From the UHGV virus genome UHGV-1135478: a stretch of DNA of 22,302 nt; one strand, written 5' to 3'. A program made the position numbers and the translations under genes. The DNA is from a virus. Numbering within the stretch: position 1 is the first letter of the stretch; each line of letters starts with the position of its first letter. The notes under the pieces were generated by a model. It did no database searches. It was given only the letters and a program-made list of their open reading frames with translations, and was not told where the DNA came from. Shown in pieces: positions 9,169 through 22,302 of this stretch.

Positions 9169-10335
9169 ATGGCAGTAGGTGAAATTCAAATTAGTGCCTT
9201 GCCTCAAGCAGCCTTACCAATTGACCTTAGTGATATCTTCCATCTTAAGCAGGGTATTGAGGATAAGAGATGTACTCTTGAGCAATTACTTGCTCCACAC
9301 TCAAGCCTAAGAAATAACCCTCACGGTGTTACTAAAACACAAATTGGTTTAGATAATGTTATCAATGCTCTTCAGTTAGTTGCTGCAAATAACTTATCAG
9401 ATGTTGCTAATGTCACTGAGGCAAGAGCAAATCTACAGATTATGTCTTCAGAAGAGGTTAATAGCCTTGTTCAACAGCATATTAATGATAAAAGTAACCC
9501 ACACAATACAACTAAGGCACAGGTTGGTTTGAGCAATGTCCAGAACTGGGTGACATCTAACCTTTATAATGAGGATGCAGATAAGTATGCTACAGCAAGA
9601 GCAGTAAATAACTTGTACAAGGCTGTTCAGGCTTCTTATCCAGTAGGTACTATCCATCTCTCTATGAATCCTGCAAACCCTTCTACATATTTAATTTGTG
9701 GAGGTACTTGGGAGTTAGTTTCAAGAGGAAGAGCACTTGTAGGTTATGATAGTGATTCTAGGCCAGTTGGTAGTAACTTTGGCTCAAGTAGTGTTAGCTT
9801 ATCTAGTAACAACCTACCATCACATAGCCATTCAATCTACCTAACTGGTGGTGGACACACTCATGGTGCTGCTATTACTATTGATGGCTTTGATTACGGC
9901 AATAAGAGCACAAACAGTTTCGATTATGGAACAAAGACCACTAATAGCACTGGTGCTCACACCCACTCAGTGAGTGGTTCAACAAATACCACAGGTAATC
10001 ACACACATACTGTAGGTGGTCGTTATGGTGGTGACTCTATCGGTGGTAAACATCGTGTTCAGGTCTCAGGGACTGAACAGGTTTCCAGTGTAGCTGGTGA
10101 CCACTCACACGCTATTAGCGGTTCAACAAATACCACAGGTAATCACCAACACACTGTTGCAATTGGTGCTCATACCCATACTGTTGCAATTGGTGCTCAT
10201 ACCCATAAAGGCACAGTAACTTTGCAGTCATCTGAGCATACTCACTCAGGTACTACAGGTACTACAGGTGCTGGTCAAGCATTTAGCATTGAACAACCAT
10301 CCTTTGTGGTTTATGTATGGCAAAGAACCGCTTAA
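9169..10335 (+). CDS. Tail fibre protein (tail-collar-like domain + His-x-His repeat C-terminus)
   Basis: 388 aa. N-terminal repeated motif NPHxxTKxQxGLxNV (twice). Collar-like segment …CGGTWELVSRGRALVG…LSSNNLPSHSHS…. C-terminus rich in HTH/HSH/HQH motifs (GAHTHSVSGSTNTTGNHTHTVGG…). RBS AGGAG. Confidence 0.8.
   Translation: MAVGEIQISALPQAALPIDLSDIFHLKQGIEDKRCTLEQLLAPHSSLRNNPHGVTKTQIGLDNVINALQLVAANNLSDVANVTEARANLQIMSSEEVNSLVQQHINDKSNPHNTTKAQVGLSNVQNWVTSNLYNEDADKYATARAVNNLYKAVQASYPVGTIHLSMNPANPSTYLICGGTWELVSRGRALVGYDSDSRPVGSNFGSSSVSLSSNNLPSHSHSIYLTGGGHTHGAAITIDGFDYGNKSTNSFDYGTKTTNSTGAHTHSVSGSTNTTGNHTHTVGGRYGGDSIGGKHRVQVSGTEQVSSVAGDHSHAISGSTNTTGNHQHTVAIGAHTHTVAIGAHTHKGTVTLQSSEHTHSGTTGTTGAGQAFSIEQPSFVVYVWQRTA
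9916..10089 (+). repeat. Direct repeat copy 1 (shared tail-fibre C-terminal module)
   Basis: Roughly 80% nt identity by eye to 12546-12719; identical runs ACTGGTGCTCACACCCACTCAGTGAGTGGTTC (9949-9980 = 12579-12610) and TATGGTGGTGACTCTATCGGTGGTAAAC. Confidence 0.8.
10153..10206 (+). repeat. Perfect in-frame tandem duplication, 2 x 27 nt (encodes TVAIGAHTH twice)
   Basis: ACTGTTGCAATTGGTGCTCATACCCAT occurs twice back-to-back with no mismatch (10153-10179 and 10180-10206). Confidence 0.85.
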
Positions 10336-10385: not shown

Positions 10386-12905
10386 ATGGCAGATTACAAA
10401 TTGAGTGAATTAAACTCAATCGATACAATCCGTTCAGACGACCTTCTTCATGTCAGGGTTAAAAAGAGACCTGAAATGCTGGGTGATGAAGACCGTCGAA
10501 TGACCTATCAAGACTTCTTAGCATCTTTTAAGCTTGAAAGATTTGTTCAGATTGCTGGTAGTACTATGACTGGTGACTTAGGGATTGTTAAGTTACTTTA
10601 TGGTGGTAAGGCAGTCTTTGACCCTACAGGCTCTTCTGAGATTACTATGGGGGATATTTTAAAGACTTTTAAAATTAACGCAAATGGTCTTAAATTAACT
10701 ATTGCAGATGCTTCAAGGTCAGCAACTGTTTATCATACTCTGAATAAGCCAAGTCCTAATGAGCTTGGTATGAGAACTAATGAAGAGAATGACGCAAGAT
10801 ATGCAAGACTTGCTGTTACAAACACATTCTCTGGGACTCAGAACATTCAAGGTGATGTTAACTTACTTCGCCTTAGAAACCAAAATGCAAATAATGCACA
10901 ATATATTGAAGGTGTAGACCTAGATGGCTCGGCTAGATGGTTGGTTGGTATTAGCAAAAATGGTTCTGATGCAGTGCAGTTGTACAATAACAAATATGAC
11001 TCAGCTTTGACTATTGCAAGCAATATCTCTGTGAATAAGTCTCTAGCAATCACTGGTCAAGTACAACCTTCTGACTTCTCTAACTTAGATGCTAGATACT
11101 TTACTCAGACAGCAGCTAATCAGAGATTTGCACAGTTAGCTGTTAATAACACTTTTACAGGTGCTAATACTTTCACTAACCTTGTTGTTAAGAAGAATGC
11201 TAATGCTATTACTTTGCAGAATACTGATGCAGGTACAGCACTTTATATTCTTGGTAAGAAGTCTGATGGAACAAATAAATGGTATGTTGGTACAGATTCT
11301 GATGAGACACGTCTGAATATTTATAACTACATTACAGGTTCACAGGTTTCACTAGGTACTACTGTTGGTATTAATAAAACCTTGCAAATCAATGGTCAAG
11401 TTCAACCATCTGATTGGACTAACATTGACTCTAGATATATTCCGGCAGCAACATTAAGTACAATTGCAAGAACTAATACTCTCAATACATTTTCTGTACG
11501 ACAAGTTATCAACTCTGATGGTGAAGCTCTTGCGTTAAAAGCAAAAACTGAAACGACATTGTTCATTAGGGGGTGGGCTGCTGATGGGACAGCTAAGTGG
11601 TATGTTGGTAATGGTGATGCCGATAACAATAATAACTTAAGGCTGTTTAACTACAAAACAGGTAAAGTGCTTACCATTGGCTCAACATTCGAAATGAATG
11701 CAACTTTAGCAATCACTGGGCAGGTTCAACCTTCAGATTGGTCTAACATTGATGCGAGATACTACAACAAATCATCTGCTGATAACAGATATCTGAGAGT
11801 AAGAAGCACAGATTTCAATACTAGTGGTGCTGGTAAATGGGCTAAGATTGCAACTGTGAATATGCCACAAGGCGCATCAACAGCAGTGATTGAACTGTTT
11901 GGTGGGGCTGGATTTAACTTTGGCCTAATTGACCAAGCCTGTAAGACAGAAATTGTTCTTAGGACAGGGGATGGTAACCCAAAAGGCTTAAATGTTGTTG
12001 CATGGAAAAACTCACCGAATAGTGTTGTAAGTAGAATTGGGTATGTTAATACCTCTGGTGATAACTATGACATTTATTGCGCAGTTGGTAACTATCTAGC
12101 CGCTACAACAGCTAGGGTTCAGTCAACATCTAATGCAACAGTACAACTGTTTGAGGCTCCAGAGACATCTGACAACGCTCCATCTGGCTATGTTGATGGG
12201 ACAATTGCTCACTATTACACTAGTCTCTTGAAGCCAACACCTTCAGATATTGGTGCATATACTAAATCAGAAACTGACCAGAAGATTGCACAGGCAATTA
12301 GTGACTCTACAGACCTTAATAAAATCTATCCAGTAGGTATTGTAACGTGGTTTAACAGTAATGTTAACCCTAATACCGCACTTCCTGGATTAACTTGGAC
12401 GTACCTGAACAATGGTGTAGGTAGGACAATCAGGGTTGCAGCAGCTAATGGTTCAGATGTTGCTACAACTGGAGGCTCAGATTCTGTTACGTTAGCAGTT
12501 GGAAACTTACCTTCACACACTCATAGTTTCTCTGCGACAACCTCTAGCTTTGACTACGGTACTAAAACCACTAACACTACTGGTGCTCACACCCACTCAG
12601 TGAGTGGTTCTACTAACAACACTGGTGCTCATACACATACAGTTGGTGGTCATTATGGTGGTGACTCTATCGGTGGTAAACCTCGTGTTCAGGTATTTGG
12701 TACAGAACAGGTATCTAGCTCTGCTGGTGCTCACGCTCACACTGTATCTGGTACTGCTGCCTCTAACGGAAACCATGCTCACACTGTTGGTATTGGTGCT
12801 CACAGTCATACAGTTAGTGGTAACACTGGTGGTACAGGTTCTGGTTCAGCATTTAGTGTAACTAACCAGTTCTATAAGCTGATGGCTTGGGTAAGAACTG
12901 CTTAA
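10386..12905 (+). CDS. Long tail fibre protein (internal domain repeats; collar-like + His-x-His C-terminus)
   Basis: 839 aa; RBS AGAGGA. Three to four ~110-aa internal repeats, each ending …GQVQPSD(F/W)(S/T)N(L/I)D(A/S)RY. C-terminal ~190 aa homologous to fibre 1 (…GNLPSHTHS…GAHTHSVSGSTNNTGAHTHTVGGHYGGDSIGGK…). Confidence 0.85.
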   Translation: MADYKLSELNSIDTIRSDDLLHVRVKKRPEMLGDEDRRMTYQDFLASFKLERFVQIAGSTMTGDLGIVKLLYGGKAVFDPTGSSEITMGDILKTFKINANGLKLTIADASRSATVYHTLNKPSPNELGMRTNEENDARYARLAVTNTFSGTQNIQGDVNLLRLRNQNANNAQYIEGVDLDGSARWLVGISKNGSDAVQLYNNKYDSALTIASNISVNKSLAITGQVQPSDFSNLDARYFTQTAANQRFAQLAVNNTFTGANTFTNLVVKKNANAITLQNTDAGTALYILGKKSDGTNKWYVGTDSDETRLNIYNYITGSQVSLGTTVGINKTLQINGQVQPSDWTNIDSRYIPAATLSTIARTNTLNTFSVRQVINSDGEALALKAKTETTLFIRGWAADGTAKWYVGNGDADNNNNLRLFNYKTGKVLTIGSTFEMNATLAITGQVQPSDWSNIDARYYNKSSADNRYLRVRSTDFNTSGAGKWAKIATVNMPQGASTAVIELFGGAGFNFGLIDQACKTEIVLRTGDGNPKGLNVVAWKNSPNSVVSRIGYVNTSGDNYDIYCAVGNYLAATTARVQSTSNATVQLFEAPETSDNAPSGYVDGTIAHYYTSLLKPTPSDIGAYTKSETDQKIAQAISDSTDLNKIYPVGIVTWFNSNVNPNTALPGLTWTYLNNGVGRTIRVAAANGSDVATTGGSDSVTLAVGNLPSHTHSFSATTSSFDYGTKTTNTTGAHTHSVSGSTNNTGAHTHTVGGHYGGDSIGGKPRVQVFGTEQVSSSAGAHAHTVSGTAASNGNHAHTVGIGAHSHTVSGNTGGTGSGSAFSVTNQFYKLMAWVRTA
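10773..11795 (+). repeat. Tandem ~330-nt intragenic domain repeats in the long fibre gene
   Basis: GQVQPSD motif recurs at codons 224, 337 and 445 (nt ~11055, ~11394, ~11718) with flanking KWYVG / LAVxNTF motifs; copies are diverged at nt level. Confidence 0.6.
12546..12719 (+). repeat. Direct repeat copy 2 (shared tail-fibre C-terminal module)
   Basis: Counterpart of 9916-10089; see that entry. Confidence 0.8.
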
Positions 12906-16687: not shown

Positions 16688-17071
16688 TCAAATACCTGTG
16701 CAGCTTCTGTTTTCTAAGAAATACTCAACACCATACATAGCTTTTTGCATCAAATCTTCTTTAAACTGGATACGATGGTTGCGCATAGCCTGTACATCAA
16801 TATCATCATGGTGCTTCTCTTTAATATTTGCAGATTGCAGGAAATACTCTCCAAGAACGCGATACTGATAGTCAGTTACCTTATCAGTCATCTCTGTTAA
16901 AGACTCTTCAGAGATTGGTTTCAGTAGCTCACCATTAGCTAGAGCAAGACCTTTAACAATCTGGCAAGTGTCTTCTGGAACACCTGATAAGTCCACATTT
17001 GGAAGTTCTGTTGCATTGACTGGTAAATTCATTGCCATAACCATTGCAGCAGCTAATAAAATCTTTTTCAT
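16688..17071 (-). CDS. Secreted/periplasmic protein with cleavable signal peptide (function unknown)
   Basis: N-terminus MKKILLAAAMVMAMNLPVNA then TELP…; two Cys in mature part; RBS GAGGT 5 nt before ATG; first gene downstream of the tandem promoters. Confidence 0.65.
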   Translation of the reverse strand: MKKILLAAAMVMAMNLPVNATELPNVDLSGVPEDTCQIVKGLALANGELLKPISEESLTEMTDKVTDYQYRVLGEYFLQSANIKEKHHDDIDVQAMRNHRIQFKEDLMQKAMYGVEYFLENRSCTGI

Positions 17072-17115
17072 AATGACCTCAAAGTTATATTAAATTTTGT
17101 ATTACATTGAGTATA

Positions 17116-17144
17116 AAAATAAGCTATAACACCTGACTTGTCAA
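17116..17144 (-). promoter_or_regulatory. Sigma70-like promoter P2 (TTGACA-N17-TATTTT)
   Basis: - strand -35 TTGACA at 17139-17144; -10 TATTTT at 17116-17121; ~45 nt upstream of ATG 17071. Confidence 0.45.
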
Positions 17145-17161
17145 CAGATTTTATAGCTTAT
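17119..17161. repeat. Perfect 11-bp inverted repeat centred on the P2 -35 (operator-like, or weak AU-rich terminator)
   Basis: ATAAGCTATAA (17119-17129) and TTATAGCTTAT (17151-17161), 21-nt spacer containing the -35 TTGACA; on the - strand RNA the hairpin is followed by UUUUUAUAC. Confidence 0.5.
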
Positions 17162-17318
17162 TTGGCAGATTTTTTATAAGGCTACTGCCATCCTTCCATA
17201 CCAGACTACGCCATGCCAGACCAGACTTCACATCACCTTACCGTGCAATACATCGCTTAAAACCCTCTTAGAAGACTCTTAAGTGATGCTGGTGAGTACC
17301 CGTTGGTTCATGCTGCTC

Positions 17319-17346
17319 AGTATACTCACCAAATTTTCTATGTCAA
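17319..17346 (-). promoter_or_regulatory. Sigma70-like promoter P1 (TTGACA-N16-TATACT)
   Basis: - strand -35 TTGACA at 17341-17346, 8 nt after the ligase stop; 16-nt spacer; -10 TATACT at 17319-17324. Confidence 0.55.
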
Positions 17347-17353
17347 CAACTTT

Positions 17354-18457
17354 TTATTCGTAATCTCGAATAACTAGCCCAACAGGGAACTGTAAAGACC
17401 CCTTACGAGTCATCTTCTGGAACTGAACCGTCAAAGGTTTCCCGATAAACTCTTCAGGATGCTCAGCAAGATACTGTTTCTTCTCATGAGTAGTTTTCCA
17501 TGAGACATCTACAAAGACGTTAGGAAGAGTCTCTACAACGAACTTGCCATGACCACGTTTATCGGTCTTTACACCAGTCACTTTAAACTCTTCAGTGTGC
17601 ATCTTCTTGTGCTTAATCAAGAAGTAGGAACGGTGACCACACTCGTAGAAAGATTCTTCAGAGATTGAGCGGTACATTGCACCTTCAAACTTAGCTTCAA
17701 CCCACTTATCATGAGCTTCATCAAACTCTTCCCAAGAATTTACACGACGAGACTTAACAGGAACAACTTTACAGCCGTCTCTAAAGTCATTCAATGGTGA
17801 AGTCTCAATAATATCTCTACGCTCAGGCCACGTCTTAGTACTGTCACAGATATCATACCAGTAAAACTTGAGTAGATGTCGGTCAGGATTGTCTTCATTT
17901 TTAATCATGGAGACAATATCTTCTAAGTCCAACCCATGAGCATAGATTTCACCATCAAATTCATCAACATCTTTATGGAGCCTCAACATTGCCATAATGT
18001 CAGGTATTAGCTCAGTAGGAATTTTATAAATAGTGTTCTCACGAGAATATGCTGTAAATACACTGCCAATACTTAAGTGTCTTGAAATTCTACAACGGAC
18101 ACCATCAAGTTTTGGTTGAGCATCAGCAGGGAACTTCAGATACTTTGCATGGCTAACCTTTGCAGCATCATGAGCAAGCTGTACACCTACCTTCTCAGTA
18201 TTCTGTGCAGACTCTTTTGTGTAAGCGTAACCTTTACGGTCTACTTGTTTCTTGTACTTAGCAGAAACTTCAAAGAGAGCTTGCTGTTCAGCGTTACGCT
18301 CATTCTTTTTACCGATGTTCTTAGGCTCTGCTGTGTACTCTTCAAACATCATCTTGCCATTTTCTTTACCGTAGGTTGTGATAACTTTGTCACCTACAGC
18401 AACGCATGACCAGACGTTGAAGGAACCATCTTTATTTTGTTTGTATAGGATTGTCAT
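17354..18457 (-). CDS. ATP-dependent DNA ligase
   Basis: Nucleotidyltransferase motifs: KLDGVRC (motif I), DGEIYAHG (III), EGAMYRS (IV), LIKHKK (V). Start set to ATG 18455-18457 (MTILYK…) with RBS GAGGT 6 nt upstream; the ORF-track start 18493 lacks an RBS but is possible. Confidence 0.85.
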   Translation of the reverse strand: MTILYKQNKDGSFNVWSCVAVGDKVITTYGKENGKMMFEEYTAEPKNIGKKNERNAEQQALFEVSAKYKKQVDRKGYAYTKESAQNTEKVGVQLAHDAAKVSHAKYLKFPADAQPKLDGVRCRISRHLSIGSVFTAYSRENTIYKIPTELIPDIMAMLRLHKDVDEFDGEIYAHGLDLEDIVSMIKNEDNPDRHLLKFYWYDICDSTKTWPERRDIIETSPLNDFRDGCKVVPVKSRRVNSWEEFDEAHDKWVEAKFEGAMYRSISEESFYECGHRSYFLIKHKKMHTEEFKVTGVKTDKRGHGKFVVETLPNVFVDVSWKTTHEKKQYLAEHPEEFIGKPLTVQFQKMTRKGSLQFPVGLVIRDYE

Positions 18458-18650
18458 TTTTAACCTCTGAGTGATACCAAGTATTGCAAGCATTACATGC
18501 GTAAAGCTCTAAGTCATTTTTATCTGGTTTATGGAAACAGTTTGACCCACAACGACACCGGAATAGCTTACCATCAACACGAAGAATGAATTTTTCAAGC
18601 TCACCATCTTCTGTAAGAACTGCGTTCTTAAATTTATCTTCTACAGTCAT
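18432..18650 (-). CDS. Small Cys-rich zinc-finger-like protein (hypothetical)
   Basis: 72 aa with CRCGSNC…CNAC; ATGA start/stop overlap with the upstream gene. Confidence 0.55.
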   Translation of the reverse strand: MTVEDKFKNAVLTEDGELEKFILRVDGKLFRCRCGSNCFHKPDKNDLELYACNACNTWYHSEVKNDNPIQTK

Positions 18651-20809: not shown

Positions 20810-21120
20810 CATCTGGTCAATACACTCGCAAGGTGTACCAGTTCTCTTATGAACTTCTCCGCATTTCTACGGAGTGTCGGACTATATCACGTAGTAGTAA
20901 TACTACCGTTGCACTTGGGAATGGTCATTAGCTTACCACCCTACTCTACTCAGTTCATACATTAAGTATGCTTTTCGATAGTCTCTGAACGTTTCTCTGT
21001 TAGGAATCTCTATAGTTATGTTATTTGCTTTAGGAGTCCTAACAGAGACTTCGCTGCTGATTACCATATCTTTACAGACTTAGGCTTCCAGCAATTCACA
21101 ACGTTTTACATGCGCCACTG
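20810..21120 (-). ncRNA. Group I self-splicing intron (311 nt, no ORF) in the DNA polymerase gene
   Basis: On the - strand: R element GTTCAGAGACTA (20979-20990) and S element GATATAGTCC (20879-20888) form the P7 core. Intron 5' region GCGCAT pairs with exon-1 end ATGCGT (P1, U-G at splice site). Intron ends in G. Stops in all frames. Confidence 0.8.
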
Positions 21121-22302
21121 ACGCATAAATGCCATTCTTAGCTTTCTTACGACCTTTGCTAATCTCATGAAGAAGATTCTCATCCTGAGTAGCTCGACAA
21201 GTCAAGATGTCCTGCTCATCGTTCAAGCTAAAGTAGATACTGTTCAGTGTATGTGCATCAGTCCCTGAATAGACAACGTACAGGTCATTCTCAGAGTCAT
21301 AGCGAAGGTACTTATCAATCTCTGGGTTGAGGTACTCATCAAAGTGTTTGCAGTAATAGCGTCCATCTTCTTGACGAATGAACTCAATCTCTTCTTTACC
21401 TTGTGTTACCGCTTTGGTGAAGTCTTTGTCACCCATAAAGTTACAAAGAAGAACTAGCTGGGCTGAGTTCATATCAACTGAAACAATGTTAGTCCCTTCT
21501 TCACAAGTCCACACCTCCCGCATAGGTGCTCCATAGACAGCAGCACCAGATGGTACGTTTACAATACCATATTGTGTCATACGCCCAGTTGAAGTACCAA
21601 ACACCATTGCACCAGCACTAAGGCGACCATCAGGACGAATCTGGTTCAACCAACCTTTTTCATCATCCTTTGAGTTCTCAATAGTTCTGCGTCTGTGCAT
21701 CAAAGTATAGTATTTAGCAATCTTCTGTCCAAGCTCACCTTCAATCGTATCATAAGATGATTCAGTAAGTTTTGGCGAAGTACGGATTAAGCAAGGCTCA
21801 AGCAAATCTGTGTACTTCTTCACAGACCAGTTATGCTCAATGTACTGGACACCTTCATGTTCAACATAACTCAAACCACACCGCTCAACCATTTCCTGCC
21901 ACTTAGGATGTTTTGTAATCATCTTTTTATTGTCTTTGAAACGACAAACTTTGACAGGACGACCATCTGAGTCTTTCTTGTAGTTCCAGTCATCTGGAAT
22001 CCAACCAACTGATTTCAAGTAGTCTTTAACAACTGCTACCTGAGTCATACGAGAAACTTCGAACTCAATTGGTGTATATGGTGCATCAATCAAACCTGTG
22101 TAGCGACTTGACTCAAGTTCAAAGTGGTTAACGACGTGGCTGTTATAGTACTTCACAGTTTTGACTGTTTTTACTGGTTTCCAGTCTTTGCATTTCTTAC
22201 CAATCTTTGCGTTCAACTCATTGCAAATTGCACGAGCATCCTTCATTGCTACAAAGCCTTCCTTGTACTCTTCACCAGTTACAGTGTTGGTTGGTGTATA
22301 GC
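21121..22302 (-). CDS. DNA polymerase, family A, exon 1 (N-terminal/middle part; 5' end beyond window)
   Basis: Frame open to window edge; contains motif-A-like …VSVDMNSAQLVLL… and the start of motif B …RKKAKNGIYA at the exon end. Predicted spliced junction …KNGIYA-LLFGAGDEK…. Confidence 0.85.

Follow-up and report, generated by a model that had tools for sequence, protein, structure and literature searches.

Organization of the locus

The DNA analysed here (the window) is a stretch of 22,302 nucleotides (nt) from a virus, UHGV virus genome UHGV-1135478. A 1.3-kb query from it matched the Salmonella phages Si3 and SPT-1 at 100% identity along its whole length and Felix O1 at ca. 96%, and the source of the window is Salmonella phage Si3, a Felixounavirus. 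Our subject is a gap of 282 nt that has the DNA ligase gene on one side and a homolog of open reading frame 87 (ORF87) of Felix O1 on the other, all on the minus strand. The gap almost certainly holds the gene of a vrRNA, the guide RNA of VIPR, a phage-borne system of RNA-guided silencing described in 2026 (bioRxiv 10.64898/2026.04.26.720920, 10.64898/2026.04.26.720927; hereafter VIPR preprints). VIPR loci are minimal, being made up of the genes vipr and vap and of flanking vrRNAs (VIPR preprints). In Si3 a single vrRNA stands alone, and its guide appears to be directed at vipr itself.

Transcription would start at a promoter, P1, and run through a short leader with a stem-loop, about 11 GGYNN units and a pseudoknotted tail of ca. 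40 nt to a terminator hairpin (Table 1). Unit by unit, the tract reads TGTAT, TGCAC, GGTAA, GGTGA, TGTGA, AGTCT, GGTCT, GGCAT, GGCGT, AGTCT and GGTAT. The second position is G and the third a pyrimidine (G2 and Y3) in 11/11 units, and the full GGY is found in six of the 11. The 12 consecutive in-phase xGY pentamers (17257-17198) compare with six at most in 200 shuffles, and neither the window nor the 84-kb Si3 genome as a whole contains another tract of this kind. Taking only the two variable bases (NN) of each unit gives the guide code AT AC AA GA GA CT CT AT GT CT, after which comes a constant last unit. An earlier note on this DNA had pointed out three CCAGAC copies on the plus strand, and they are indeed found at 17201-06, 17216-21 and 17221-26, but the hexamer is not a motif in its own right, as it is not enriched in the window (eight copies against 8.6 expected); the copies are the complement of GGTCT units, and their local cluster simply reflects the 5-nt periodicity of the tract.

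The tail that follows the tract can be folded as an H-type pseudoknot, in which stem S1 pairs AAGG (17195-17192) with CCUU (17181-17178) and stem S2 pairs GGCAG (17189-17185) with CUGCC (17168-17164). Among 15 tail variants 93.9% of the cells are paired, with compensatory changes in 9/11 pairs, while in slid controls only 28-38% are paired. The tails fall into four sequence types, all of which fit one H-type pseudoknot, and that of Si3 is identical in sequence to the tail of the last vrRNA of SUSP1. The G-U wobbles in the stems indicate an RNA read from the minus strand. No Rfam family matched the region at the gathering threshold (the only hit with E < 10 was a spurious Plastid-psbA, at 20.7 bits against a threshold of 54.3), and ARAGORN found neither a tRNA nor a tmRNA in it.

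P1 is nearly invariant in 12 relatives that lack vipr (vipr-less phages), and its start site is predicted from the sequence at about 17311-17313. The exceptions among the 12 are a -10 box TATGCT in Felix O1 and phiWec172 and a -35 box TTAACA in SP4, so that expression of the orphan guide may differ from one vipr-less phage to another. A second promoter, P2, lies inside the terminator hairpin, where it would restart transcription for the genes downstream; it is probably the promoter of ORF87 and of further genes beyond. Both had been proposed in the earlier note as tandem promoters and both are present. Promoter-like matches occur in the region at chance level (four against 4.2 expected), and what supports the two calls is that both are nearly invariant in the relatives and identical in the SUSP1 locus. 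Neither P1 nor the repeats appear in the Felix O1 genome paper, and our literature search found no transcriptome paper on Felixounavirus.

Over the -10 box and start site of P1 there is an 8-bp inverted repeat, GGTGAGTA-N24-TACTCACC, with arms at 17330-17323 (GGTGAGTA) and 17298-17291 (TACTCACC) of the minus strand. It had been described as a hairpin of the P1 transcript. The sequence is as described, but P1 transcribes only the 3' arm; the 5' arm overlaps the -10 box and precedes any P1 start, which means that the P1 RNA cannot fold into the hairpin. Both arms are the same in every relative and in SUSP1, which leaves no covariation to test; the repeat is possibly a DNA-level operator that regulates the VIPR promoter. 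At the far end of the gap, the palindrome followed by a U-run that the earlier note had reported (arms at 17163-17145 and 17135-17117) folds strongly, at -17.8 kcal/mol (z = -4.6), and is nearly invariant, with one arm position varying in 2/12 relatives, and identical in SUSP1. A simple terminator scan missed it, probably because its loop is longer than 8 nt.

As to coding capacity, the statement that no ORF exceeds about ten codons is correct for ATG starts but not for GTG, from which one ORF of 26 codons opens; it is broken by 5-nt indels in the relatives. A small protein starting at an ATG behind a Shine-Dalgarno-like UAAGAGGG was also considered and rejected, as it would have six codons here and 18-21 in some relatives, with a start and a frame that are not kept, the frame being shifted by 5-nt indels. 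In the public record of ULIM9 the vrRNA tract is mis-annotated as the coding sequence of a 35-amino-acid "hypothetical protein" (L148 314-421), and in that of dune it is entered as a bare "repeat_region" (L002 2544-2595).

Table 1. Features of the gap and of its two borders, in window coordinates.
Feature	Coordinates	Strand	Remarks
ATP-dependent DNA ligase gene	17354..18493	-	Left border of the VIPR site
P1, sigma-70-type promoter, TTGACA-16-TATACT	17319..17346	-	11/12 consensus; predicted to drive the vrRNA
8-bp inverted repeat, GGTGAGTA-N24-TACTCACC, over P1 -10 box and start site	17291..17330	-	
Leader stem-loop (hairpin A), CAUCACUUAAGAG...AAGCGAUG	17251..17288	-	Folds at -16.3 kcal/mol
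vrRNA repeat tract, 11 pentamers in perfect 5-nt register	17198..17252	-	
3' tail of vrRNA, H-type pseudoknot, ca. 40 nt	17158..17197	-	
AU-rich terminator-like hairpin, 19-nt arms, 9-nt loop, then U-run	17112..17163	-	Closes the vrRNA/VIPR unit
P2, TTGACA-17-TATTTT, -35 box in hairpin loop	17116..17144	-	10/12 consensus; invariant in relatives
ORF87 homolog, 127 amino acids, signal-peptide-like N-terminus, phrog_4332	16688..17071	-	Right border of the VIPR site, outside the RNA

The VIPR site in related phages

Across 23 IMG/VR loci and several GenBank records, the gap turned out to be a mosaic hot spot that comes in three forms. The first, as in Si3, has 270-290 nt and one tract; the second has 420-605 nt and two tracts; the third, of 1.7-2.1 kb, contains two genes (for proteins of ca. 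195 and 146 amino acids) with two or three tracts upstream and two or three downstream. The two extra genes are found at this site in about half of the relatives of Si3. In the relatives each array unit opens with a stem-loop, continues with 13-20 GGYNN pentamers and ends in a conserved structured tail. When the 12 vipr-less phages are aligned, the flanks are ca. 98-100% identical and the tract is hypervariable, with indels of only 5, 10 or 15 nt and a G fixed at every fifth column. The same hot spot has received another small insertion in five loci (L008, L012, L017, L019, L020), in which the first 147 nt between the ligase gene and P1 hold an extra ORF of 48 codons for a very hydrophobic peptide, MLSIIILFALVIFVLSYITSKLLDTSFAMGVLFTIFCFVTHIAIRTFL.

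The first gene of the two-gene cassette identifies the system. The family of its 195-amino-acid product has no Pfam domain, but the protein of the relatives is 98% identical to PDB 36pp, "SUSP1 Vipr protein", and a profile of 40 family members matches the same entry with E = 9e-80. The relatives' Vipr, for which an AlphaFold model is confident (pLDDT, the model's confidence score, 94.7), has the RAMP-like features of the family, namely an RRM core, G-loop, thumb and the residues H17, R138, D177, W178 and R179; R138 and R179 are invariant across 40 Vipr homologs and H17 is nearly so. As the cassette protein is in effect SUSP1 Vipr, the tracts are vrRNAs of VIPR systems. In the public records inspected, both vipr and vap are annotated as "hypothetical protein".

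The published vrRNAs consist of 9-16 YNNGG repeats and a tail of ca. 40 nt, with a pseudoknot in the SUSP1 clade; each repeat is bound by one Vipr protomer, which sequesters its GGY, and the protomers form a helical filament (VIPR preprints). The NN dinucleotides pair with double-stranded DNA, one base being skipped per unit (xNN), and transcription is silenced (VIPR preprints). Before Vipr was identified we had considered a TRAP-like ring protein binding 5 nt per subunit, G-quadruplexes or an R-loop origin, T7-type primase sites, Chi-like recombination hotspots, a sponge for CsrA or CCA ends and a site like the ops element of RfaH, all of which were then dropped; the idea of one protomer per 5 nt proved correct for Vipr.

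That the Si3 region is a vrRNA gene is as good as certain, because the P1, inverted repeat and leader stem-loop found here also stand upstream of vrRNA1 in the SUSP1 locus, whose last vrRNA is followed by the same tail, terminator and P2. A function at the level of DNA, be it an R-loop-prone origin, a cluster of primase sites or protein-binding iterons, could be suspected from the short tandem period and from the strong skew of G over C on the non-template strand downstream of a strong promoter. We hold this to be barely credible: the wobbles and the strand-specific compensatory changes of the tail indicate RNA, the tract goes together with a RAMP protein that binds RNA and has been solved in complex with such an RNA, and an origin function is without support.

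A blind scan of IMG/VR for the pattern (GGTNN)5GGT retrieved many unrelated viral contigs with clusters of degenerate tracts. About 28 unrelated viral loci among them encode a Vipr homolog in the same fetched stretch, and in the examples looked at, the end of this gene lies immediately before the arrays. An unrelated viral contig (L063 2180-3400, IMG/VR 3300025122_000199) has at least 12 tandem vrRNA-like units directly after a Vipr homolog, each made up of 7-15 GGTNN pentamers and then a constant GGAATGGTTTAATGAATTTAATTT; compared with the SUSP1 clade its tail is much shorter and different and its array much longer. Seven other loci resemble it (L049, L051, L059, L072, L078, L123, L131).

An orphan guide with a match in vipr

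Neither Vipr nor Vap could be found in the window or in the whole Si3 genome by tblastn and a hidden Markov model of the family, which in a control search found the vipr of phage dune at 2e-82. With both genes absent, the Si3 element is filed as an orphan variant and not as a complete VIPR system. The preprint defined the SUSP1 clade by BLASTp with Vipr, and vipr-less phages thus fell outside its survey. SUSP1 vrRNAs of ca. 100 nt have been sequenced and co-purified with Vipr (VIPR preprints), and to judge by the promoter and the tail that it shares with SUSP1, the Si3 vrRNA would also be expressed as an RNA of about this length.

As a query we used the ten variable dinucleotides in the published format with 1-nt skips, nATnACnAAnGAnGAnCTnCTnATnGTnCT. 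Its best match in the ca. 1.2 Mb of sequence searched lies inside vipr of the vipr-carrying (vipr+) relatives, at AATCACCAAAGAGGAACTTCTGATGGTTCT, where the matched codons read I-T-K-E-E-L-L-M-V-L and the skipped bases are the third (wobble) positions. In the 88.5-kb genome of the vipr+ phage dune this site matches at 20/20 positions, the next-best position at 15/20, and 200 guides with shuffled order reached 17/20 at best. Skips of zero or two bases gave only background, and a skip of three only the self-match of the array. The exact pattern occurs four times in IMG/VR, each time (4/4) on a vipr+ Felix-like contig, and once in 596 Gb of GTDB genomes, in a Vallitaleaceae metagenome-assembled genome without Vipr, which by our own estimate is about what chance would give. 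The best match of the guide in its own genome is 15/22, within the shuffled range. A variant guide in Seyj1-1, in which one CT has become TT, perfectly matches a vipr allele with a synonymous change of CTG to TTG. The natural targets of VIPR are competing mobile elements, often hit within coding sequence and in such a register that the wobble base is skipped (VIPR preprints), and going by these matches vipr is very probably the cognate target of the Si3 guide.

It could be supposed instead that P1 transcripts provide ORF87 and the genes downstream with an ordinary, long untranslated 5' leader, in which the palindrome would be an attenuator and the repeats a protein-binding or processing site. 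The tandem promoters and the strong terminator-like hairpin between them are real, and read-through into ORF87 is possible. However, P2 already serves the downstream genes, and a leader would leave unexplained the GGY periodicity, the hypervariable NN within conserved flanks, the covarying pseudoknot, the homology to sequenced SUSP1 vrRNAs and the perfect gapped match to vipr, so that we consider it very improbable. Out of the functions offered in the earlier note it is thus the small RNA that has stood up, as an independent non-coding RNA gene that has a promoter and a terminator hairpin of its own, and not the messenger leader or attenuator.

Other solitary guides and the case for a relic

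Other vipr-less phages carry different solitary guides. That of EC6 and JN01 matches vipr at 16/16 positions (nt 40, minus strand), again with the skip at the wobble position. That of ULIM9 matches at 20/22 (nt 361), and 8/8 exact matches to its pattern in IMG/VR are on vipr+ contigs, while that of L011 and FSL SP-010 (15/18, nt 99) is marginal. For these three guides the best match genome-wide is in vipr, each at a different site. When at least 85% of the NN positions had to match the vipr-vap cassette, six of ten solitary arrays passed, as against 0/10 arrays of two-array vipr-less loci and 0/45 arrays of vipr+ loci. Roughly 112 GenBank records are of vipr-less phages. SUSP1-type vipr was found in 118 phage records, while a search of 5,426 complete E. 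coli genomes, the only host species covered, gave none; within these collections, the targets would be rival lytic phages and not elements of the host.

Several observations weigh against a guide that works on the Vipr of a rival. Among the seven types of solitary guide, three (SP4, OPT-SAL01, radambza) lack a significant match in vipr. Of the 61 arrays in vipr+ or two-array loci, not one reaches an 85% match with the genome of Si3 or of dune, and there is therefore no evidence that the VIPR of rivals attacks phages of the Felix O1 type. In Si3, 5/10 guide units begin with T or A (TGT, TGC, AGT), the position (G1) that is contacted by H17 and D177 of Vipr, and in the published assays silencing was lost when the GGY motifs were perturbed (VIPR preprints). 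However, such non-GG units also make up 4/10 of the last vrRNA of SUSP1, by our own count, and 24% of the units in vipr+ arrays. Finally, the sample is modest, with 12 vipr-less sequences and ca. 15 vipr alleles.

These doubts bring up the possibility that the element is inert, a leftover of a VIPR locus in which P1 and the terminator have simply persisted. On this view the guide that now matches vipr would once have targeted or autoregulated its own system, which was thereby rendered useless and could be lost. Both vipr and vap are absent, as such a history demands, and the architecture is the expected product of recombination between leader stem-loops; the conservation of the flanks says little about selection, because the phages are so similar overall. 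G1 is also less often G in solitary arrays (61% of units) than in vipr+ arrays (76%), but as TGT and AGT units occur in bona fide vrRNAs too, this frequency is not a clean measure of decay. A relic would nevertheless have to account for three or four different solitary guides that match different sites of vipr, and, as none of the 45 arrays of vipr+ loci is self-targeting, every ancestor would need a configuration that has not been seen. The preprint survey did not find a self-targeting array either (VIPR preprints). Besides, the 20/20 guide positions are intact in Si3 despite the five units without G at G1, where uniform decay predicts otherwise, one guide variant (Seyj1-1) tracks a target allele, and the 5-nt register with G2 and Y3 is kept in 12/12 vipr-less phages. 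We thus regard an inert relic as unlikely.

Weighing all this, we think it probable that the minus strand carries at 17346-17112 a solitary gene for a vrRNA of the type II VIPR systems of the SUSP1 clade, with the redirection of a rival's Vipr as the most likely role of its guide.

Probable origin and proposed action of the solitary vrRNA

The leader stem-loop of Si3, hairpin A, is a copy of the direct repeat that precedes several vrRNAs, in SUSP1 and in three of the relatives' loci (L014, L018, L019), and by BLAST the query positions 78-306 are contiguous upstream of ORF87 in vipr+ loci. Hairpin A is the probable site of the recombination that deleted vipr and vap: most likely the exchange took place between repeated leader stem-loops, which would have fused P1 and its leader to the ortholog of the last vrRNA.

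Since Si3 has neither vipr nor vap, its RNA cannot act alone. In a mixed infection, the orphan guide, made abundantly from the near-consensus P1, would load onto the Vipr of a rival phage, and the loaded Vipr would then be directed to the rival's own vipr-vap-vrRNA operon and repress it. The orphan guide may at the same time titrate Vipr away from the rival's own guides, so that the VIPR system would be shut down. Whether the Si3 RNA acts in trans as an anti-VIPR in this way we judge, from the sequence, to be a nearly even question. With slightly less assurance we suggest that the solitary vrRNAs of vipr-less Felix O1-type phages may in general be RNA "anti-VIPRs", expressed from a strong early promoter, that have arisen repeatedly against different sites of vipr and track its alleles.

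Comparison with known systems

The SUSP1-clade vrRNAs resemble that of Si3 in their site between the ligase gene and the ORF87 homolog, in the GGY/NN tract with hypervariable NN, in the pseudoknotted tail of ca. 40 nt and in a target read with 1-nt skips that fall on the wobble position. They differ in that vipr and vap are present together with about four vrRNAs, whereas Si3 has neither gene and one vrRNA, and in that their guides are aimed at a satellite or prophage, whereas that of Si3 is aimed at vipr itself. The published targets of the SUSP1 clade are mostly a satellite (VIPR preprints), and some vrRNAs of the P. fulva clade target other VIPR systems (first VIPR preprint). The text of the first VIPR preprint makes no mention of orphan or standalone vrRNAs, of Felix phages or of anti-VIPR. 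VIPR itself is known from the 2026 preprints; what is new here is a solitary vrRNA in vipr-less phages that is aimed at vipr.

The nearest parallel is provided by phage-encoded single-guide RNAs (vsgRNAs), by which Cas9 is sequestered and guided to its own promoter, so that the promoter is silenced (bioRxiv 10.64898/2026.06.01.729453). In both cases a virus carries a guide without the effector gene and the effector is turned on its own expression. However, the effector of the vsgRNAs is Cas9 and not Vipr, and their target is the promoter of the host cas9, while that of Si3 is a coding sequence of a rival phage; moreover, their mechanism has been shown experimentally, whereas that of Si3 is deduced from sequence.

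Solitary guide-like RNAs and mini-arrays are found in viral genomes also as RNA anti-CRISPRs (Racrs, PMC10651486) and virus-borne mini-CRISPR arrays (PMC6858448). They resemble the Si3 RNA in depending on the effector of another and in acting in conflicts between viruses or against defence, and are looser analogues. Racrs are said to be repeat mimics without a guide that act as decoys, and mini-CRISPR arrays reportedly use host Cas proteins against competing viruses. In the Si3 case the effector would come from the competing virus, and the target is the gene of that effector.

Self-targeting CRISPR spacers coincide with degraded cas loci, as lethal autoimmunity selects for the loss of cas. They share with the Si3 guide a match to the genes of the system itself and the loss of the effector genes. 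VIPR represses transcription, so that self-targeting would only switch the system off, unlike the lethal autoimmunity of CRISPR.

Other features of the window

Elsewhere in the window there is a group I intron on the minus strand (20857-21161; Rfam RF00028, 62.3 bits, E = 7.5e-14), flanked by two DNA polymerase gene fragments annotated in Si3, with an HNH endonuclease gene annotated further downstream. Two adjacent tail-fibre genes contain 198-nt direct repeats that are 81% identical (9916-10210 and 12546-12813), with sub-repeats encoding His-rich motifs of the G-x-H-x-H type; they appear to correspond to repeats described for genes 76 and 77 in the Felix O1 genome paper. Outside the window, at 573-1988 of the Si3 genome, a gene annotated as "RNA-binding protein", which in phage dune is a vWFA protein, adjoins a tRNA cluster with several "tRNA-OTHER" pseudo-tRNAs and is unrelated to the VIPR site.

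Implications

The region is unannotated or wrongly called a small protein in public records, and a simple search for the pattern (GGTNN)n is an efficient finder of VIPR loci. A VIPR guide without the protein is present in Felix O1, a classical phage of typing and biocontrol, and in many related phages. VIPR has been described as older than CRISPR (VIPR preprints). If the interpretation given here is true, the solitary vrRNA would be the first counter-measure described against it, and lytic phages of a single genus would be waging war on each other with guide RNAs. If the guides do work in trans, they would represent a natural anti-VIPR mechanism and a ready-made test system for the conflict between closely related lytic phages, which would also bear on the mixing of Felix O1-type phages in therapeutic or biocontrol cocktails.

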